From: an uncultured Candidatus Micrarchaeota archaeon
Lineage (GTDB): Archaea > Micrarchaeota > Micrarchaeia > Anstonellales > Bilamarchaeaceae
Reading direction: 5' to 3'
Length of the DNA: 64,000 bases
Assembly (NCBI GenBank): GCA_903828955.1
Contig: CAIKOA010000032.1
Location: 20,141 to 84,140, forward strand
This document shows positions 52,833 to 64,000 of this stretch, in pieces (positions within the stretch are counted from its first letter, which is position 1; every line of letters begins with the position of its first letter). Under the pieces are notes generated by a model. It had not been told where the DNA came from, searched no databases, and saw only the letters and a list, made by a program, of their open reading frames with translations. The position numbers and the translations under genes are program-made.

Positions 52833-53137
52833 CAAACAACATGCCCGCGCTCCTTCCTTATCCACTTGCATACTTTGCAAATAAGGTTCTTGCAGCGCGG
52901 CCTCTTCTTCGCGATTCCCTGCACATACGTTTTCTCTTCTGCGCTCAATATTTCCTTCTTCCCCCGCTTCTGCTTCGCATACTGCGAAACTGCAGCTTCG
53001 GTAGTTCCGAGCATTTTCGCAATATCCTTCTGCTTAATTCCCATTTTTATCCAGTCCAGCGCAAGCTCCCGCTTTATCGCAGGCACAAGCGTCCAGTGGA
53101 TTTGTTCGCACGGAATTATTTTTCGTGAACCGTTCAT
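52829..53137 (-). CDS. Small HTH transcriptional regulator with C-terminal Cys cluster (putative metal-sensing, TRASH-like)
   Basis: The HTH is IAKMLGTTEAAVSQYAKQKRG. The C-terminal is CKNLICKVCKW...C. It is divergent from the copper operon. Confidence 0.55.
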   Translation of the reverse strand: MNGSRKIIPCEQIHWTLVPAIKRELALDWIKMGIKQKDIAKMLGTTEAAVSQYAKQKRGKKEILSAEEKTYVQGIAKKRPRCKNLICKVCKWIRKERGHVVC

Positions 53138-53211
53138 CGCAATTACCTTCGCATAATACTCTTATAACCCTATTGATTGCAATAAACCTTACAACCAACA
53201 GGCGTAATATT

Positions 53212-53236
53212 CTTAACAATCGTTAAGTTTTATAAA
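53212..53236 (+). promoter_or_regulatory. Inverted repeat CTTAACaatcGTTAAG overlapping a TTTATAAA TATA box, about 30 bp upstream of the copper operon
   Basis: The 6-bp arms with a 4-bp spacer lie immediately 5' of the TATA-like element, between the regulator gene and the HMA gene. It is a candidate operator. Confidence 0.35.
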
Positions 53237-53263
53237 CCTTGCAGTATATAACAACCCCAAAGG

Positions 53264-54214
53264 GTGGAACCTATGAAGGAAGAAAAAATCCACATAAAAG
53301 GAATGCACTGCAGGAGCTGCAAGGAAATTCTCGAAATGAACCTTGGCTCCCTTGCAGGAGTGGAAAAGGTTTCGGTCGACCTCGCGGGAAATTCCGCAAG
53401 AATCACTTACGACCCGACTCAAACAACTATTGAAAAAATACAGGAAAAAATCGAGCAGACAGGCTACTCGGTTGAAGGAAGCGCTGAAAAACCCCAGGAC
53501 AACAAGAACGGATTGATGCAGGGCCTCATTTACGGCCTCCTCCCGCACGTAGGGTGCATCGCCTTCATAATCGGCTCGGTGCTCGGCGTCGCGGTATTGA
53601 TGGAGTTCTTCCGGCCGCTTCTAATGGACCGGAACTTCTTCAACTACCTTCTCGGGCTCGCATTCGTATTCGCAACTTTCTCCTCAGCCCTTTACCTGAG
53701 GAACAACGGGCTGCTTTCCTTTGCAGGAATGAGAAAGAAATGGAAGTACCTCACCGCAATGTACGGCTCAACGATAGGGGTGAACCTGCTTCTTTTCATG
53801 TTCATCTTCCCGCTCTTTGCAAACTCACCGGTTGCGGCAACTGCGCCCTCCGCAGAATTCAATTGCCCAGTGGGCGGAGGGGCAGCCTGCCCAACAGAAA
53901 CGCTTGCAGGAGCCTCAATCGGGCAGCAGAGTGGAGCCCAGCAGCCAACTGGAGGAATCCAGCCGCCTCCTTCCGGAGTTTCCCAGTCCGCGCCGGTCGC
54001 ACTCTACACGAAGATGAAGATTTCAGTGGACATTCCGTGCCCTGGACACGCTCCGCTCATCACCTACGATTTGAAAACAATAGGCGGAGTAAAGGGAGTC
54101 GAATTCTCGCAGCCGAACGTATTCGACATCACCTACGACCCTTCGCAAACGACCGAGTCCCAGATACTTGCCCTGGACGTCTTCAACACCTACCCGGCAA
54201 AGAAGCTCGCATGA
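53264..54214 (+). CDS. Heavy-metal-associated (HMA) domain membrane protein, putative copper-binding
   Basis: The N-terminal GMHCRSC HMA fold is followed by about 4 TM helices and a C-terminal ferredoxin-like domain with Cys. Confidence 0.65.
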   Translation: MEPMKEEKIHIKGMHCRSCKEILEMNLGSLAGVEKVSVDLAGNSARITYDPTQTTIEKIQEKIEQTGYSVEGSAEKPQDNKNGLMQGLIYGLLPHVGCIAFIIGSVLGVAVLMEFFRPLLMDRNFFNYLLGLAFVFATFSSALYLRNNGLLSFAGMRKKWKYLTAMYGSTIGVNLLLFMFIFPLFANSPVAATAPSAEFNCPVGGGAACPTETLAGASIGQQSGAQQPTGGIQPPPSGVSQSAPVALYTKMKISVDIPCPGHAPLITYDLKTIGGVKGVEFSQPNVFDITYDPSQTTESQILALDVFNTYPAKKLA

Positions 54215-54251
54215 GCACCCTTTCCCTTAATATATTTTTTATTCGGAGGTT

Positions 54252-56402
54252 ATGCAGATGAAGAAGGAGATTGCAATTTCCGGAATGCACTGCGCCTCCT
54301 GCGCCGCGGTGCTTACACATTCGCTAAGCAAAGCAAAAGGAATATCGAGTGCCCACGTAAACTATGCAACCGCAAAAGCAACAGTTGAGTTTGATGAGCA
54401 CATCATTTCCGAAGAGCAGATCCTCCAGATAATAAAATCCCGCGGATACTCCGGAACATTCTCCATAGACCGCGAGCACCTTGAGAAGATGCAGCAGAAA
54501 GAGATCGGCGATTTAAGGAAGCTCATCCTCTTCAGCGCGCTCTTTTCCATTCCAGCCCTTCTTATTGGAATGTTTTTCATGGATATTCCCTATCGCTTAC
54601 CGGTTCTTTTCATTCTTGCAACCCCTGTCCAATTCATTGCGGGAAGAAGGTTCTATTCTGGCGCATACACAGCTCTCCAGAATTTCAGCGCAAATATGGA
54701 TACCCTGATTGCAATAGGCACGAGCGCAGCATATTCCTACAGCGTTGCCGCACTCCTGGGCTTTGCAACCGAGCAATACTTCGAAACCTCCGCGGTTCTT
54801 ATCACATTTGTACTTTTAGGAAAATATTTAGAGGCGGTTGCAAAGGGAAGAACAAGCCAGGCCATTAAGAACCTCATAAAGCTCTCCCCGAAAACCGCCC
54901 TAATAATCATTAATGGAAAAGAAAAGGAAATCCCGATAGATGAAGTGAAACTCGGCTACCTCCTTCTGGTAAAACCCGGAGAGAAAATCCCCGTAGATGG
55001 AGAAGTAGTTGAAGGAGATTCCTTTGTGGATGAGAGCATGCTCACCGGGGAAAGCATGCCCGTTAAGAAATTTCGCGGAAGCAAAGTGGTTGGCGGCACC
55101 CTGAATAAAAACGGAGCTCTTACAATCCGCGCGCTCCGCGTAGGAGAAGGCACAATGCTTGCGCAGATAGTGCGCTCAGTAGAGGAAGCGCAGGGAAGCA
55201 AGGCGAATATAGAAAGGTTTGCAGATACTGTAAGCGCTTACTTCGTCCCCGCAGTTATTGGAATTTCCCTCCTCTCTTTCCTGGTCTGGAATGTTGTTTT
55301 CAACCAACCAATCTCTTTTGCGCTCTCGATTGCAGTCGCAGTAATCGTGATTGCATGCCCCTGCGCCCTCGGGCTCGCAACCCCCACCGCGGTAATGGTT
55401 GGCACCGGAATCGGCGCAACCCGCGGCATCCTTATTCGGAATGCGGAAACCCTTGAAACAATGCACAAGATAGATGCGATCATATTCGACAAGACCGGCA
55501 CAATCACTGAGGGAAAGCCGGCAGTTACCGATTTTATTTCAGAAGACGATGAGAAAATACTTGGAATAATTTATTCCATAGAATCCAAATCCGAGCATCC
55601 TCTTGCTTCCGCGATAGTTGAATACGCAAAGCAGAAGGGAGCAAAGAAATACATAATTTCCAAATTCCGCGCCCTTGAAGGAAAAGGGGTCGAGGCTGTT
55701 TGCGGAAAGCACAAAATATTCATAGGAAAACCCGACCACACGCTCTCCGGGGAATGGGCGACCCGGGCAAAAACGCTCCAGGAAAAAGGCAGAACCACAA
55801 TCGCAGTCCTTGTAGATGGAAAACCCAAGGGAATTCTTGCGGTTTCCGATACAATCAAGCCCACAAGCAGGGCCGCGGTTTCAGAGCTAAGGAAAATGGG
55901 CATGGAGGTCTGGCTGATTACCGGGGACAATGCGAGGACCGCACAGGCAATAGCGCGGCAGGCGGGCATTCCCCAGGTCTTTTCCGAAGTCTTTCCCACC
56001 CAGAAAGCCGAATACGTAAAGAGATTGCAGAGGGAAGGCAAAGTTGTCGCAATGGTAGGGGACGGAATAAACGACGCGCCCGCGCTTGCGCAGGCAAACG
56101 TGGGGATTGCAATGGGCTCCGGAACCGATGTTGCAATTGAAGCAGGTTCTATTGCGCTTATGCGCAGCGACCCGCAGGATGTTCCGCGCGCAATCCGCTT
56201 AGGAAGGGCCACAATGGGCAAAATCAAGCAGAACCTGTTCCTTTCCCTTTTCTACAATGTCCTTTGCATCCCGGTTGCCGCAGGAGTTCTTTATTTCCCG
56301 TACGGAATTCTTCTCTCTCCAATAATTGCAGGAGGAGCAATGGCGCTCTCCAGCGTTTCCGTAGTTACGAACGCGTTAACTCTGCGCTGGGCAAAACTCT
56401 AG
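54252..56402 (+). CDS. copA: Copper-translocating P1B-type ATPase
   Basis: It has HMA (GMHCASC), CPC ([12 protein letters not shown]), [17 protein letters not shown], and 8 TM helices. Confidence 0.9.
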
Positions 56403-56426
56403 AATTAGTTTTTTCTCTTTCCGCTC

Positions 56427-57575: not shown

Positions 57576-60500
57576 ATGAAGGGACCTCCCAGAGCGCCTT
57601 CCATACGCATGCTTTCGGACGCTCAGCTGGACGCACTCCAATCCTTCATAGAGAAGCACGAATTGGAAATAGAGCTCGGAAAGCAGAAATCACTCTCCTT
57701 CCTTTACACTCTTTACAAGAAAGAGGATGCAAAAAGGGCGAAGAAAGAGAAGTATTCCAAAAAACTCCTAAAGGACGCGGAAAACCTCATTCTTTCCATG
57801 CAATCCATCCCGCCAGGCAGTGGAACGCGCCCAAGCGAACCCCCTCCTGCTTATGCGCAAGCGAAGCCAGCAGGAAAAATTAAGGACAGGAAGCTCCTGG
57901 AAATTGAGGAGCTCGCCTCCTCATCCAAAGAAGAAAGAATACGCAGAAAGCTCGCAGAACTCTTCAACCAGGATGAAAAGAGCCTTGAAAAGATGGTCAA
58001 GGCGCTCCTGGAAAATAAAGAGGGGGAAAAGCTTGCAGCCAGAATTTCCTCCTTATTCATCCAGATCAAAGAACAGGAACATAACACCAAACTACATGAT
58101 CTTCTTCTTAGTGGAACCTCTTACATCTATATTCCCGATCTCGCGGGCGCATGTGAAGAGCTGGGAAGCATCTTCGAAGGGATCGGGCTGATGGATTTTG
58201 CAGGGGAGATTTACAGTCTCCAGGCAGATGCTTTGAGGGAAAAGGAGCCTGAGAGGGCATCGGAAATCTACAAGAAATCCGCCGGCCTCCTCATTGAAGG
58301 CAGGAATCCGGATTCCGCAGCCAAGGCATACGGCAACTCGATGTCTCTTTTTCCAGCCGGGAAAGAAAAAATCCTGGAAACGCTATATTCCGAAGTGGGG
58401 AATTCCGAAAACGCAAACAATTACCAACGCGCTGCAAACCTCTGCTTCACCCTGGCGTATCTCCTGGAGGGAGACTCAGCAAAGCATGCGGAGTTGGAGG
58501 CGAAGGCCGGAGACTATTCAATGAAATGCGGAGAATACCGGGATGCCGCAGTGGCATATAAAGACGTCGCGGCAACATTTTCGAACCAGCTATCTGATAT
58601 GAGCATGCTTCGGGACAATGCACGCGAGAGGCATGCGAATATGGAACTCAGCGCTAAAATCGTGGCCTTCAATATAAAATCCGCAGAAGCATTCGAGGAA
58701 GCCGCAAAAGCCACCGCGTCGCCCGCAGGCAATAAAATGGACCTTCTCAACGCGGCAGAAAGGTATTGGGCGGCGGTATTTGCGACGCTGGATAAAACGG
58801 AAAAAGAACAACTCTGCGAAAAAGCAGGCAATCTTTTCCCACAAGCGGGAAGGTATGCCGAGGCAGCCGAGGCGTATTCGCGGCTTGCGGATCTCTTAGG
58901 CTCAAAAAACCCCATAAAAGCGCTTGAAGCGAATGAAAACGCAGTTCAGAATTACTTCAAGGCAGAGAACTATGAGAAAATCAATTCCCGGTACTACTCA
59001 ATAGATTCCTTGGTGAGGGGCAAAGATCGTGAGGAAGTGCAAAAGCACCGAGAAGCAATGGCCGCCAAACTTGCAGCCAAGGCGGAAGAGCACGCAAAAG
59101 CAGGAGACTACATCAAAGCAGGCTATGCATACACCACTGCAGCGCAACTAATCTGCTCTACTTTAGAAACGGGGCCGCTCCCAGCCAAATTGCTAAAAGC
59201 GTCCGGACTCTATGAAAAATCCGCAGACTCCTACGCGGAAGCTAAAAATGATTCGGCAGCCCAACTTTACGCAGAAGCGGCCCAACTAATCGAGAAATCC
59301 AGGCCTGAAAAAGCAGCAGAACTCTACGAAAAATCCGGGGACATCCGTAATAAAAACAACCACTTACTGCAGGCATATGAAGCATACTCCAAAGCAGCCG
59401 AACTAATCAGGAACTCCAACCCGGAAAAAGCAGCAGAACTCTATGAAAAATCCGCAGACGCCCACGTAAAGCTAAAGATATACGATGCGGCATTCGAACA
59501 ATATTCAGAAGCGGTTGTGCTGGACCCGAAACTCAGCGGGAGAATCGCAGGGAAGAAAATCTTCTCCGCCATCCTCTCAGGCAGGTGGGAATCAATTGCA
59601 AAGGAGATAGAAGAGAAATATCCTTCGCTGCATGCACTGCTTCCGGAAACGGACGAGCATTGCGCCGCTTTCCTAAAGGATTCCGGGGTGTCCATGGACC
59701 CGGAGCGGATAGAGTTTGCAATAAGGGCATTTCTGGAAGTAAAAAAAGAAGTCGGCTTCATAAACGTAAGGATGAGGGAGGACTTACTGTTCCTCTCCAA
59801 AGGCTTTGCCCAATTTGAGAAGAACGGTTTCAGGAAAATTGAGGGGATCCCGAGCTGGTTCCTTCTCCAGGCCTACGCGGCAACCGGAGGAAACCCCGAA
59901 AAAGCCGCCCACATAAGAAAGATATGCGAAAGCAAGGAGTTCAGGAATTCAAAGGACAGGCGGAAGGAGATTTCCTGGCTTCTTGCAGACCATGCAGATG
60001 AAAAGCGGTACATGGCCGAACTTTACCATATTGTGAACCTTTCCTCTTCAAAGAAAATTTTCCAGAACATCACCTCGTTCAAACTCCTCAAGGCGATAGA
60101 TTCCATGCTGCAAATTGACGAAATCAAAACCCAGGGGGAGTTCGACTCGGAATTTGAAAAAGAGGTACACGATTTCATACAAAACAGAACCGAAAGCAAG
60201 AAGGTTGTGGAAACGTTCCTGAAAAAGCTCGAGTCGTTATATTCAAGCGGTTTCCTTATTGCCATAACCACCACCTACTCGCAATACTTGAGATATGCTG
60301 GGCTGGACAAACTCATGGACCTCGCCTTGATTTCCACCGTAATGGGTGATTTTGAGAAGGTAAAGTTCCCCACGGAGGAAGGAATTGCAGGCATGGATTA
60401 CCTGTCGGCTGAGCAGAAGGAAACTCTGATGAAGGCAACCGGCCAGCTCTCCAACTTAGGCGCCTCAAGGCAAAAATGGATTGAGCGCATTGAAATCGCC

Positions 60501-61457
60501 AAAGTTTCAGGCCAGGGGGAGGTAACAATTGAAATGGCGAGGAAGGACCTTGCCCAGAGAATCGAGGACATGAAATTCCACTTTAAGGAGCACATCTCAA
60601 CCAGGGAAGGGGAGCTGGAGAAAGAGTTCGCATTTACCCCCAAATTCCTGGAGAGGATCCAAGCGGACATAAAAACAATTGAGGGGAGAGGGGAGAACAA
60701 ATCCCCGGAGTACATAAAGCTCAAGAACATCGAGCGCATCCTGGTTTCCATCTCCGAGCTCGAGAAGGTCGACCCGCTGAATGCGAGGGAAATGGGCCCG
60801 GAGCTGAAATCCCTCCTCAGGGGGCTCGGGCAGTCCACAACAACCCTGTTCAAGAATTCCTATAAGATGAAGCCGGAAGACATCGATAGCCTCCAGGCAA
60901 AGATGGATGTGGACCTCCTCTCAAAAATGCTTATTGAAGAGAAGGAAAAGCTGAAAATAGACAAACTGGTAGCTTATGACAGCGCAGACCCCATTCACCT
61001 GATACTTGCAGGCAAGCAGCCGGAAAATTCCGGCTCCTGCCAGAGATATGATGGAACCCCCAACCTTATGGCTGGCCTTTCCGGCTACCTCCTAAACGCC
61101 CACACAAAAATAATCCGCGTTGAAAACCAGGACGGAATTGTGGTCGGGAGGGCGATGCTGAAGGCTGTCACCGCGGATGGGGAGCCCGCCCTTTTCCTGG
61201 AAAGGGCATACTACAGGAATGCGGCAAGCAATCCCGAAGTGGACGAGATGATTGTAAGGCTCGCAAAACAGAAAGCTGATTCCCTTGGGATTCCCCTCCT
61301 TTCAACGTGGAGGTCCTCAGGAAAGAGCAAGCAGGCCAGGGTAATCGTTGAAGCCGGGCTTTCGCAGTATGAATACAGCGACGGGCTAGGCGGAGGCGCC
61401 CACGGAAACGTTTCCGAGGGAGGGAGGGACATCAAGCTGCAGGTTAGCATACTTTAG
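57576..61457 (+). CDS. Giant (about 1290 aa) SNAP/TPR-like helical repeat protein
   Basis: It has reiterated A-x-L-Y-x-K-S/A-A/G-D motifs (EKAAELYEKSGDIRNKNNHLLQAYEAYSKAAELIRNSNPEKAAELYEKSADAHVKLK). These resemble alpha/gamma-SNAP TPR-like repeats. Confidence 0.6.
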   Translation: MKGPPRAPSIRMLSDAQLDALQSFIEKHELEIELGKQKSLSFLYTLYKKEDAKRAKKEKYSKKLLKDAENLILSMQSIPPGSGTRPSEPPPAYAQAKPAGKIKDRKLLEIEELASSSKEERIRRKLAELFNQDEKSLEKMVKALLENKEGEKLAARISSLFIQIKEQEHNTKLHDLLLSGTSYIYIPDLAGACEELGSIFEGIGLMDFAGEIYSLQADALREKEPERASEIYKKSAGLLIEGRNPDSAAKAYGNSMSLFPAGKEKILETLYSEVGNSENANNYQRAANLCFTLAYLLEGDSAKHAELEAKAGDYSMKCGEYRDAAVAYKDVAATFSNQLSDMSMLRDNARERHANMELSAKIVAFNIKSAEAFEEAAKATASPAGNKMDLLNAAERYWAAVFATLDKTEKEQLCEKAGNLFPQAGRYAEAAEAYSRLADLLGSKNPIKALEANENAVQNYFKAENYEKINSRYYSIDSLVRGKDREEVQKHREAMAAKLAAKAEEHAKAGDYIKAGYAYTTAAQLICSTLETGPLPAKLLKASGLYEKSADSYAEAKNDSAAQLYAEAAQLIEKSRPEKAAELYEKSGDIRNKNNHLLQAYEAYSKAAELIRNSNPEKAAELYEKSADAHVKLKIYDAAFEQYSEAVVLDPKLSGRIAGKKIFSAILSGRWESIAKEIEEKYPSLHALLPETDEHCAAFLKDSGVSMDPERIEFAIRAFLEVKKEVGFINVRMREDLLFLSKGFAQFEKNGFRKIEGIPSWFLLQAYAATGGNPEKAAHIRKICESKEFRNSKDRRKEISWLLADHADEKRYMAELYHIVNLSSSKKIFQNITSFKLLKAIDSMLQIDEIKTQGEFDSEFEKEVHDFIQNRTESKKVVETFLKKLESLYSSGFLIAITTTYSQYLRYAGLDKLMDLALISTVMGDFEKVKFPTEEGIAGMDYLSAEQKETLMKATGQLSNLGASRQKWIERIEIAKVSGQGEVTIEMARKDLAQRIEDMKFHFKEHISTREGELEKEFAFTPKFLERIQADIKTIEGRGENKSPEYIKLKNIERILVSISELEKVDPLNAREMGPELKSLLRGLGQSTTTLFKNSYKMKPEDIDSLQAKMDVDLLSKMLIEEKEKLKIDKLVAYDSADPIHLILAGKQPENSGSCQRYDGTPNLMAGLSGYLLNAHTKIIRVENQDGIVVGRAMLKAVTADGEPALFLERAYYRNAASNPEVDEMIVRLAKQKADSLGIPLLSTWRSSGKSKQARVIVEAGLSQYEYSDGLGGGAHGNVSEGGRDIKLQVSIL
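59281..59456 (+). repeat. Near-identical ~58-bp direct repeats 120 bp apart inside the SNAP/TPR-like gene
   Basis: gcccaactaatcgagaaatccaggcctgaaaaagcagcagaactctacgaaaaatccg is about 85% identical to gccgaactaatcaggaactccaacccggaaaaagcagcagaactctatgaaaaatccg. Confidence 0.6.
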
Positions 61458-61521: not shown

Positions 61522-62304
61522 GTGCAAAGGATGGAAGGCACTGCAAGTGCAGCATTACACATAGTGGATACGGTACCCCGTGCGCGGATAGCCGCCTCCT
61601 ACACCGGAAATCTCCCCCGCGTCTCCTTCTGGGAAGCAAAAAGATTGGCTGCCGAAAAGAATGGAAGCCTGATTTCCGCTAAAAGAATGGTAAATCTCTT
61701 CAAGCTGGTTTCAACCCTCTCCTGCTCAGACTCCACAATCCTGAAAGAATTTGAAGGGGGGATAAGGCTGAACAGCCCGAACTTCAACTGGTTTTTTGAA
61801 GGAACTTCCAGGAAGGAGCTCGCAGCCACTGTTGCGGGCACAAGCCCAGCCTGGGTCGATGCAATCGTCCTTCTTGGCCCATTTCCGGAGCAGGTTAGCA
61901 CTTTTGGCAAAGAGGAAAACAGAACGGTTTTGGAGCTTCCCAGGCACCTGGTAGGCTTAAGCGACATAATGCTCCTCGATTCCGGCTCCTTCACAGATGA
62001 AAGGGATGCAAATGAAAAAAGAGTGAAGGTAGCCGAAGGAGCGGAGCCAATGCTTCTCGGAGAAAGATCCGGAGGCGCCACATTATTTCTCGATGAAAAA
62101 GGAAATTTCACCCATTCTTCTGAGCACAGCAAGAGGAAAACCGACCCCAGGATTCCGGTATTCATCCACACGAATGCGGAAAGAATAAGCCGCCTCATTT
62201 GCGGGATTACCAGCACCATGAGGGATACAAACGAATCTCTCGCAATAAGGCTTTCAACGCTTAACGAGAACGAGAGGATGGGCGCAGTATTCGAATTTCC
62301 CTAA
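61522..62304 (+). CDS. Hypothetical protein
   Basis: Only ORF length and protein-like composition support it. A competing antisense ORF exists at 61599..62219. Confidence 0.3.
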   Translation: MQRMEGTASAALHIVDTVPRARIAASYTGNLPRVSFWEAKRLAAEKNGSLISAKRMVNLFKLVSTLSCSDSTILKEFEGGIRLNSPNFNWFFEGTSRKELAATVAGTSPAWVDAIVLLGPFPEQVSTFGKEENRTVLELPRHLVGLSDIMLLDSGSFTDERDANEKRVKVAEGAEPMLLGERSGGATLFLDEKGNFTHSSEHSKRKTDPRIPVFIHTNAERISRLICGITSTMRDTNESLAIRLSTLNENERMGAVFEFP

Positions 62305-64000
62305 TCAGTTCTTTTCCCGTTCTTTTTCCAATATTCCTTGATATTATTCACAAAGTAGAGTTTTTCCCCGCACTCAGGGCACGAATTATATCCCTTCACC
62401 TTATTCTCAATCACCGCAAACCCTCTCCTGCGCACAAGCATTTCCTTGCATTTCGGGCAGTAGGTGCTTTCGGTTTCCTCGTTCTCTATATTCCCGGAGT
62501 ATGCAAACTTCAACCCTTCTTCCATTGCAATTTCCCGTGCGCGCAAAAGAGTTTCCAATTTAGTCCTCGGCACATCCATCATCTTATTGGACGGATAGAA
62601 CGCAATGAAGTGCATCGGAATGTTCGGATCCAATTCCTTGGTCCATTTGCAAACCGCGCGAATATCATCCTCATTATCATTATACCCGGGCACAATCAAA
62701 TTAATCAGCTCAATATGCCCGATCTTATACAATCCCTTAATTGTCGCAAGAACGCCTTCCAAATCCACATCCCCGCAAACATCCCGGTAAATCTTGTCTG
62801 AAAATCCCTTCAAATCAATCCTTGATGCATCAATTCTTCCCTTCATCTCCGCAATCGCGGCATCACTCTCATATCCATTAGTCACGAACACATTGAAAAT
62901 ATCCTTTTTATGCGCCAATTTTGCCGTATCCAGAGAATATTCCATGAAAATAGTGGGCTCCGTATACGTATACGCAATCCCCGGAATCTTGTGCCCCGCA
63001 GTATAATCCACTATTCTTTCCGGGCTCCATTCTTCCCCAATAATTCCGGAGTACGCCTGGCTTATTTCCCAGTTCTGGCAATTGTGCACCCCTACAAAAT
63101 TTGCAAGGTAGGTATGCTCATCATCCACTTCCAAATTGTAAACAAACCCCGAATAACTCCTTTTCCAAAGCTTCTGCACAGGAACCGCCCAGAAGTCTCC
63201 GCAATCCAGGAAACGGAGCCCTTTCCTGCCCACTTTTGTAGGAATGGAAGACCGCCCAACCAGCGCCTCCCCAAAAACCGCCTTGTTTAATTTCACATAG
63301 TAGAGCGGAGATTGTTTTACCACCCTTCCTTCTATTATTTTGCGCTCTGGTGGAATCCATTTGTGAAAGCAAGGCAGGCAGCCAAGTTTCAAAAGAAGGT
63401 AATATGTCCCAATCGCAAGCTCGTTGGAAACGGTATTCATGGCGATATAGCACACCGTATCCGTTCCGTCCCCCTCGATATACGCTTTCAAGTACGCGTC
63501 AATAATATTTTTTGGGGATTTGAAAAGGAATCCGGGCACTTTTTTCCCAGCCGCGCCTTTTCCACCAAGTTCCTTAAGTAAAACTCCGAGCGAGCTGCTG
63601 CCCACACTCGCAGAGATTGTGGTTCTCCTCTCCAAGACGACTGCTTTAAGCCCGAATATTTTATCCAATAAGAAAGCAGCCCTTTCCGCAAGATGCCTTT
63701 CTTTTCTTCCGAAACTGAAATTCACGTAAAAGGAGTTCGGGCGCTTTTTGCTCTCCACCACTGACCCTTCCGCAACATAATATCCTAGAAGTTCGGCAAA
63801 TTCCTCATCCGCTTCAATTTCTGAAGGAATGCCTTTCTTCTCGCTCTTGAACCTTACCCATTTTCCCTCCTTCACCAAATCTGCAGGATAGAAGAACGTC
63901 TTTTCGCTAATTCCCTCCCGCTTCAACTCCCCCATCAGTTTCCTTAGGTAAACAGGATGCATTCCAACCTTTTCCCCAATCTGCCTTGAAGTACGCCCCT
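62301..64000 (-). CDS. Radical SAM enzyme (PflA-like / AmmeMemoRadiSam-type activase) interrupted by an intein; 5' end beyond window
   Basis: The C-extein CQNWEISQAYSG...VTNGYESD...CPKCK...CPECG resembles PflA-like radical SAM enzymes. The reading frame stays open to the window edge. Confidence 0.7.
   Translation of the reverse strand, partial: GRTSRQIGEKVGMHPVYLRKLMGELKREGISEKTFFYPADLVKEGKWVRFKSEKKGIPSEIEADEEFAELLGYYVAEGSVVESKKRPNSFYVNFSFGRKERHLAERAAFLLDKIFGLKAVVLERRTTISASVGSSSLGVLLKELGGKGAAGKKVPGFLFKSPKNIIDAYLKAYIEGDGTDTVCYIAMNTVSNELAIGTYYLLLKLGCLPCFHKWIPPERKIIEGRVVKQSPLYYVKLNKAVFGEALVGRSSIPTKVGRKGLRFLDCGDFWAVPVQKLWKRSYSGFVYNLEVDDEHTYLANFVGVHNCQNWEISQAYSGIIGEEWSPERIVDYTAGHKIPGIAYTYTEPTIFMEYSLDTAKLAHKKDIFNVFVTNGYESDAAIAEMKGRIDASRIDLKGFSDKIYRDVCGDVDLEGVLATIKGLYKIGHIELINLIVPGYNDNEDDIRAVCKWTKELDPNIPMHFIAFYPSNKMMDVPRTKLETLLRAREIAMEEGLKFAYSGNIENEETESTYCPKCKEMLVRRRGFAVIENKVKGYNSCPECGEKLYFVNNIKEYWKKNGKRTD
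63081..64000 (-). mobile_element. LAGLIDADG-type intein (C-terminal portion within window) inserted in the CxxxCxxC cluster of the radical SAM gene
   Basis: The LAGLIDADG blocks are LLGYYVAEGSV and AYLKAYIEGDGT. The C-terminal splicing blocks F/G are EVDDEHTYLANFVGVHN, followed by the +1 Cys of CQNWEIS. Confidence 0.75.

Follow-up and report, generated by a model that had tools for sequence, protein, structure and literature searches.

Are inteins purely selfish elements, or do they also serve as post-translational switches? This open question of the field is raised by a gene at the edge of the stretch of DNA analyzed here, 64,000 nucleotides (nt) of contig CAIKOA010000032.1 from a Candidatus Micrarchaeota archaeon (hereafter, the window). 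The gene lies on the minus strand and is open to the window edge. It very probably encodes the precursor of a radical S-adenosylmethionine (rSAM) enzyme of the AmmeMemoRadiSam type, interrupted by a class-1 intein of 457 amino acids (aa) that contains a two-motif LAGLIDADG endonuclease and a small helix-turn-helix (HTH) insert. Both splice-junction cysteines are located in or next to the set of ligands of the iron-sulfur (Fe-S) cluster, and removal of the intein would be mandatory for this oxygen-sensitive enzyme. The anatomy of the intein, the conservation of its catalytic residues, its exact insertion point, an empty syntenic site and its distribution were each observed.

The precursor and its full-length counterpart

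The reading frame is open from position 63998 to a TAG stop codon at 62303..62301, corresponding to 565 codons. A first-pass annotation of the window had given 553 aa, a length counted from the first ATG, whereas the frame continues through the window edge. The strings quoted in that annotation were all found on the minus strand in this single frame, namely LLGYYVAEGSV, AYLKAYIEGDGT, TNGYESD, CPKCK and CPECG, as well as EVDDEHTYLANFVGVHN followed by CQNWEIS. The part beyond the edge is supplied by a public protein of 804 aa, P0001, to which no protein name is attached. Its last 565 residues are 100% identical to the window open reading frame (ORF), and its contig shares the window neighbors, i.e., the 1293-aa gene, the 257/260-aa gene and Orc1/Cdc6. 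The intein comprises residues 89-545 of P0001, with 151 N-terminal intein residues and an 88-residue N-extein located beyond the window edge. The N-terminal junction reads ...FSTVGCNFRCLY/CFPPGTIVL...ECTPNH (seen also as GCNFRCLY/CFPPGT; slashes mark junctions or insertion points), and the C-terminal junction reads FVGVHN/CQNWEIS.

Splicing domain

Splicing blocks A and B, expected upstream of the window edge if the insert is an intein, are both present in P0001: block A begins with Cys89 (Cys1 of the intein) in CFPPGTIVL, and block B is T164-P-N-H167. Block G with a +1 Cys, already recognized in the first-pass annotation, was confirmed as His544-Asn545/Cys546 (63078..63086). Conservation was assessed in an alignment of 71 intein-bearing homologs showing 35-68% overall identity. 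Cys1, T164 and H167, the block F residues G523, V525, N527, E529 and Y536, as well as N545 and Cys+1 were found to be invariant in all 71, and H534 was kept in 70. Profile searches gave 53 bits for Pfam Intein_splicing on P0001 (cut-off 35.8) and 19.4 bits for NCBIfam intein_Cterm on the window fragment (cut-off 15.6). An AlphaFold2 model of P0001 built from the alignment showed a mean predicted local distance difference test (pLDDT) score of 90.3, with values below 50 only at residues 83-86 and 548-556, that is, in the split cluster loop flanking the splice junctions. The HINT fold is supported by this model and by Foldseek matches to 2cw7, 7qsu, 1dq3 and 1vde. Judged from these residues and from those of the endonuclease described below, the intein appears to be both splicing-competent and endonuclease-competent.

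Host enzyme and insertion point

The window fragment matches Pfam Radical_SAM with 41.8 bits (cut-off 29.5). The C-extein alone scored 225.6 bits against TIGR04337 (cut-off 220), in a match that begins at the junction itself (profile position 83). When the intein was removed in silico, the 347-aa spliced product was found to be a full-length member of the same family, with 336.9 bits in one stretch covering profile positions 5-331 of 349. Its core superposes on the pyruvate formate-lyase (PFL)-activating enzyme 3c8f with a Foldseek TM-score (target) of 0.67, but its score against the PflA model TIGR02493 was only 49 bits (cut-off 231.75). Thus, the designation of the host as PflA-like holds for its fold, which is related to that of the PFL-activating enzyme, and not for its family: the host is an rSAM enzyme of the AmmeMemoRadiSam type and no true PflA. 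Homologs, where named, are annotated as 'AmmeMemoRadiSam system radical SAM enzyme', 'radical SAM protein' or 'pyruvate formate lyase activating enzyme'. At the CPKC...CPEC element of the extein, weak zinc-ribbon Pfam matches were all under cut-off, and each of the four zinc-ribbon-like cysteines, C753, C756, C779 and C782, shows conservation of 90% or more.

The sequence of intein-less homologs (341-369 aa) is GCNFRCLYCQNWEIS, and orthologs read CNFRCLYCQNW. The intein therefore follows Tyr88 and separates the second Cys of CX3CX2C from the third, splitting the Fe-S motif as had been proposed; the string CxxxCxFCQNW given at that time is indeed the rSAM cysteine motif, although the true string is CNFRCLYCQNW. 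After splicing, the motif becomes C82-NFR-C86-LY-C546, in which Cys546 (+1) is the third cluster ligand. Cys86, the second Cys, stands at -3 from Cys1, and in the precursor the intein's own Cys89 takes the third position of CX3CX2C.

Homing endonuclease and HTH-like insert

Both of the LAGLIDADG blocks claimed in the first-pass annotation are present, each ending in its catalytic acidic residue, Glu316 (kept in 68 of 71 homologs) and Asp416 (69 of 71). The window fragment matches Pfam LAGLIDADG_3 with 36.9 bits (cut-off 22.5), and in sequence searches of the PDB the nearest solved relatives were PI-PkoII (2cw7) and the Tli/Pho VMA inteins. Foldseek matched the model to PI-PkoII at E 1e-24, to 7qsu (TliVMA intein) with a TM-score (target) of 0.81 and to I-DmoI (TM-score (target) 0.66-0.74, E ~1e-6), as well as to PI-PfuI (1dq3) and PI-SceI (1vde). 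The endonuclease thus has the alpha-beta-beta-alpha-beta-beta-alpha fold related to that of I-DmoI and PI-PkoII. A HINT domain combined with a two-motif LAGLIDADG endonuclease is thus shared with PI-PkoII, the Tli/Pho VMA inteins (7qss, 7qsu, 7qst), PI-PfuI and PI-SceI. Unlike these solved inteins, to which identity in structural alignments is 13-20%, the present intein has an HTH-like insert preceding the endonuclease, and its host is an rSAM enzyme instead of a DNA polymerase, V-ATPase or ribonucleotide reductase.

The insert follows the N-terminal splicing domain, precedes the endonuclease and was modeled as helices at residues 227-238, 243-250, 254-267 and 271-274. It gave a weak match to Pfam Rrf2 (E 0.023-0.05), under the cut-off. 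Inteins from other rSAM hosts share its conserved segment TS(R/K)EIG...HP.Y.R.L.

Empty sites and possible traces of mobility

The spliced product is 89% identical end to end to an intein-less protein of the same length, P0019 (347 aa). The closest extein relatives are all intein-less (P0019, 89%; P0031, 81%; P0037, 80%), and the closest intein-bearing one, P0002, shows 79% identity. The P0019 locus, L121, is syntenic with the window, with ACT_7, a 308-aa ORF, the rSAM gene, a 260-aa ORF, Orc1/Cdc6 and UbiA. In a tblastx comparison with this locus, homology begins exactly at 63080, in the +1 Cys codon. The empty site of L121 reads ...GGTGCCTTTAT/TGCCAAAATTGGGAG... (also quoted as ...TGCCTTTAT/TGCCAAAAT...), and GGGTGCAATTTCAGGTGCCTTTAT/TGCCAAAATTGGGAGATAAGCCAG of this site is a candidate endonuclease target.

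The first 27 nt of the C-extein (63054..63080) agree at 26 of 27 positions with those of an intein-bearing locus, L122, whose C-extein is 72% identical overall, versus 23 of 27 with the intein-less L121 (1884..1910; 81% overall). In this comparison of three sequences, the 27 nt look like a co-conversion tract; they may be either that or a set of synonymous changes immunizing the target.

Distribution of the junction

How widespread is this insertion? A scan of one genome per GTDB species was carried out with the degenerate pattern H-x-Y-x6-V-x-N-C-Q-N-W, for which about one chance match in the whole collection was estimated from its degeneracy. At least 120 loci, i.e., at least 120 GTDB species, were found. 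Among the 120 listed loci, all have the xN/CQNW junction in an open frame, and the N-terminal junction CxxxCxx/C was observed upstream in all 99 with a readable upstream part. Of the inteins at these 99 loci, 82 are full size, at 382-465 aa, and the other 17 are mini-inteins of 154-248 aa. According to the record titles, the 120 loci belong to Chloroflexota (40), Acidobacteriota (29), Micrarchaeota (13), Gammaproteobacteria including Burkholderiales (13), Planctomycetota (4), Asgard archaea (3) and other phyla or unclassified organisms (18), with single loci in, among others, Armatimonadota, Actinomycetota, Patescibacteria, Omnitrophota, Spirochaetota, Woesearchaeota, Iainarchaeota and Caldarchaeales. 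One listed locus (L111, NZ_RYEV01000003.1, 352001-360000) is from a cultured isolate, the gammaproteobacterium Peristeroidobacter soli JW-3, with a 453-aa intein at the same site (TAGCNLACKF/CFHPDTL...AVSN/CQNWDMS).

The earlier view of the host as a less common one is accurate for the searchable literature but not for genomes. No paper linking inteins with AmmeMemoRadiSam or PflA-like enzymes was found in that literature, which omits most subscription journals and InBase; in a paper on a Campylobacter phage, inteins and radical SAM both appear, but separately. For annotation, the consequence is that proteins of ~800 aa labeled as ordinary radical-SAM proteins may contain an intein, for which length- or domain-based analyses of AmmeMemoRadiSam proteins should allow.

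Related inteins in other radical-SAM hosts

Is the third Cys of CX3CX2C a preferred site beyond this family? An exhaustive search with the intein alone as query returned 5252 representative proteins at E <=0.001. An rSAM-type junction was seen in 29 of the best 30, the other one being unscorable; among the best 150, at least about 45 have the intein directly after CxxxCxx. The hosts include B12-binding HpnJ/BchE-like proteins (P0144, P0165, P0166, P0176 and P0225), a PflA/YjjW/NrdG-like activase (P0129) and a tungsten-cofactor/SPASM-type maturase (P0253), the intein of which lacks the HTH insert. P0126 shows the activase-type junction CxxxCxx/C...N/CQN, but no activase family match. In most B12-type and activase-like hosts, the match extends across nearly the whole intein and the HTH insert is shared, whereas many inteins of non-rSAM hosts match mainly in the endonuclease half.

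Two AmmeMemoRadiSam rSAM proteins, P0146 and P0167, contain two inteins in one CX3CX2C motif, three residues apart, in the arrangement GCNWL/C...(170-aa mini-intein)...VVHN/CRY/CFLPGT...(full intein)...AVAN/CQNF. In these proteins, the second and third Cys each act as a +1 residue, and the first intein resembles the NCBIfam model rSAM_Rv_intein (E 1.7e-11).

Inteins in rSAM proteins are already curated in NCBIfam as exception models, namely NF045703 (rSAM_Tes_intein, tetraether lipid synthase) and NF038136 (rSAM_Rv_intein, Rv2578c family). The window intein matches the intein part of the Tes model (E 8e-10, profile 340-611, ending at the +1 Cys), and its relatives in B12-rSAM hosts fit that model better, with up to 110 bits. 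Unlike the proteins for which these models were made, P0001 belongs to neither family, its scores being far under the cut-offs of 1700 and 700 bits, and no equivalent NCBIfam intein-exception model was matched by P0001.

The most interesting lead of this analysis is the recurrence of inteins at CX3CX2C in different rSAM families. A broader proposal is that the third-Cys codon is a superfamily-wide hot spot, into which one HTH-bearing LAGLIDADG lineage moved among rSAM paralogs (AmmeMemoRadiSam, PflA/YjjW/NrdG-like activases, B12-dependent HpnJ/Tes-like enzymes and SPASM maturases) and between archaea and bacteria, sometimes joined by another intein at the second Cys. This proposal is tentative and, on balance, somewhat unlikely. 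Such inteins could act as gates for redox state or Fe-S availability, because their Cys1 and Cys+1 stand in for cluster ligands or supply them. No paper describing a third-Cys hot-spot pattern across rSAM families was found in the searchable literature.

How would the intein act, and what speaks against it?

In the proposed mechanism, splicing would start with an N-S acyl shift at Cys89, followed by trans-thioesterification by Cys546, and would end with cyclization of Asn545 and an S-N shift, yielding the 347-aa enzyme with CNFRCLYC restored. The first-pass annotation had described the enzyme as obligatorily inactive until spliced. The cluster loop is indeed split in the precursor, and the enzyme should be inactive before splicing for that reason. 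The endonuclease would presumably cut intein-less alleles at a highly conserved block of codons, into which the intein would then be copied. Homing of this kind would explain why the intein is patchily present in close relatives and why it has reached many phyla, and the co-occurrence of full-size and mini-inteins is the expectation for a homing cycle.

Several points weigh against this interpretation. The window does not include the N-terminal third of the intein, the assignment of which rests on the identical public protein P0001. Unlike in PI-PkoII, where block F contains the catalytic Asp (VYDL), the present family has Asn527 (VYNL, 63135..63137), which is invariant in 71 of 71 homologs. 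The penultimate His544 (63084..63086) is kept in this copy but is found in only 8 of the 71 homologs, in the others of which the residue is mostly Gly, Ala, Ser or Cys. No compositional trace of recent import was detected between intein and extein (GC, 0.468 vs 0.443; GC at third codon positions, 0.51 vs 0.53). Finally, we infer actual splicing, endonuclease activity and precursor inactivity from the anatomy described above. Block F Asp is frequent, though not universal, among inteins. Asn at this position is compatible with intein membership and marks a family-specific variant, and the chemistry or kinetics of splicing may depart from the textbook case because of this Asn and the rare penultimate His.

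The same Asn could be taken as a sign of decay, that is, of an insertion that no longer splices, leaving the gene effectively a pseudogene or the insert domesticated. This is very unlikely: the frame is intact across 804 codons, this copy retains the His-Asn terminus, and the invariance of the splicing nucleophiles and block B in 71 homologs of only 35-68% identity indicates purifying selection. The absence of any intein at all has practically negligible probability. A multidomain fusion without an intein, for which no supporting point was found, was rejected because removal of residues 89-545 gives a seamless match to TIGR04337 and to 347-aa orthologs, instead of the continuous alignment to a non-intein multidomain protein that the first-pass annotation had named as counterevidence. 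An assembly chimera was likewise rejected, since at least 120 separately assembled genomes, including that of an isolate, show the same junction. A terminal Asn plus a +1 Cys is typical of inteins, and the presence of both led to rejection of a bacterial intein-like or Hedgehog-type domain.

A further possibility would add to the interpretation as a homing intein rather than exclude it, namely that splicing is conditional. Under oxidizing conditions a Cys86-Cys1 disulfide, or otherwise a metal bound to C82, C86, C89 and C546, might block splicing, and the oxygen-labile enzyme would then be made only under reducing conditions. The geometry needed, Cys(-3)-x-x-Cys1 (C86-L-Y-/C89), is present in P0001 and in every homolog, and splicing could be slowed by the non-canonical Asn of block F and by the variability of the penultimate residue. 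Among published cases, the Pyrococcus abyssi (Pab) MoaA intein comes closest: a native Cys-3/Cys1 disulfide is reported to block its splicing under oxidizing conditions (Callahan 2011, as cited by PMC10663303 and PMC3922620). In those accounts, the Pab MoaA intein resembles the present one in that its host is an oxygen-sensitive rSAM Fe-S enzyme and an extein Cys at -3 faces Cys1, in the geometry of the published disulfide 'redox trap'. If the Cys-3 of MoaA is also the second Cys of its CX3CX2C motif, the two inteins may share one insertion site. The present intein differs from it in its AmmeMemoRadiSam host and in having a Cys-3 dictated by the host motif. Being forced in this way, however, Cys-3 says nothing on selection for regulation, and selfish homing fully explains the patchy distribution, the mini-inteins and the conserved endonuclease residues. 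A redox- or Fe-S-gated role is plausible, though on balance rather improbable. With at least 120 species, the cultured P. soli JW-3 and empty alleles in close relatives, this intein family is a tractable natural system for studying both homing and redox- or cluster-dependent splicing.

Features and gene neighborhood

The features of the intein-bearing gene within the window are summarized in Table 1.

Table 1. Positions of the parts of the intein-bearing rSAM gene in the window.
Feature	Position	Strand	Basis or remark
Intein, C-terminal two thirds (P0001 240-545)	63081..64000	-	Translation, 100% match to P0001
HTH-like helical insert (P0001 ~227-274), cut by window edge	63894..63998	-	AlphaFold2 helices, GRTSRQIGEKVGMHPVYLRKLMGELKREG
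LAGLIDADG homing-endonuclease domain (P0001 ~300-480)	63276..63818	-	Pfam, PDB sequence matches, Foldseek
LAGLIDADG motif 1, AELLGYYVAEG	63765..63797	-	Glu316 at 63768..63770
LAGLIDADG motif 2, AYLKAYIEGDG	63465..63497	-	Asp416 at 63468..63470
C-terminal splicing region, blocks F and G, GFVYNLEVDDEHTYLANFVGVHN, ending in His544-Asn545	63081..63203	-	NCBIfam intein_Cterm
Terminal Asn545	63081..63083	-	
+1 Cys546 codon	63078..63080	-	Splice nucleophile and third Cys of CX3CX2C
C-extein (P0001 546-804), rSAM core and C-terminal part	62304..63080	-	TIGR04337, Foldseek
CPKC...CPEC four-Cys zinc-ribbon-like element of extein	62370..62459	-	Sequence
Stop codon TAG	62301..62303	-	

The neighbors of the rSAM gene are the 260-aa and 308-aa ORFs, neither with a family match, ACT_7 and Orc1/Cdc6. 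No AMMECR1 or Memo partner gene was found beside the rSAM gene, and a scan of 16 window ORFs (166-325 aa) gave no match to either. The stop codon of the rSAM gene overlaps the end of the convergent 260-aa ORF (61522..62304, plus strand). This ORF, which has no Pfam match, also adjoins the rSAM gene in L121, with 63% translated identity; at this position of L122 lies an ORF comparable in size and orientation, for which no homology to the 260-aa ORF was detected.

Relative to L121, the window contains two extra blocks, 57576..61457 (plus strand) and 52833..56422. The former is the 1293-aa ORF, located between Orc1/Cdc6 and the 260-aa ORF and showing only a faint SNAP/TPR-like match; this gene is also absent from the matching interval of L122. 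The latter contains a CopZ-domain fusion (53264..54214) and a 716-aa ORF (54252..56402). Neither tRNA genes nor Rfam families at the gathering threshold were detected in the 64-kb window. The closest named homologs of P0001 are from Micrarchaeota/Bilamarchaeaceae, and archaeal genes in the window include those for CDP-archaeol synthase, an ArlJ-like protein and Orc1/Cdc6.

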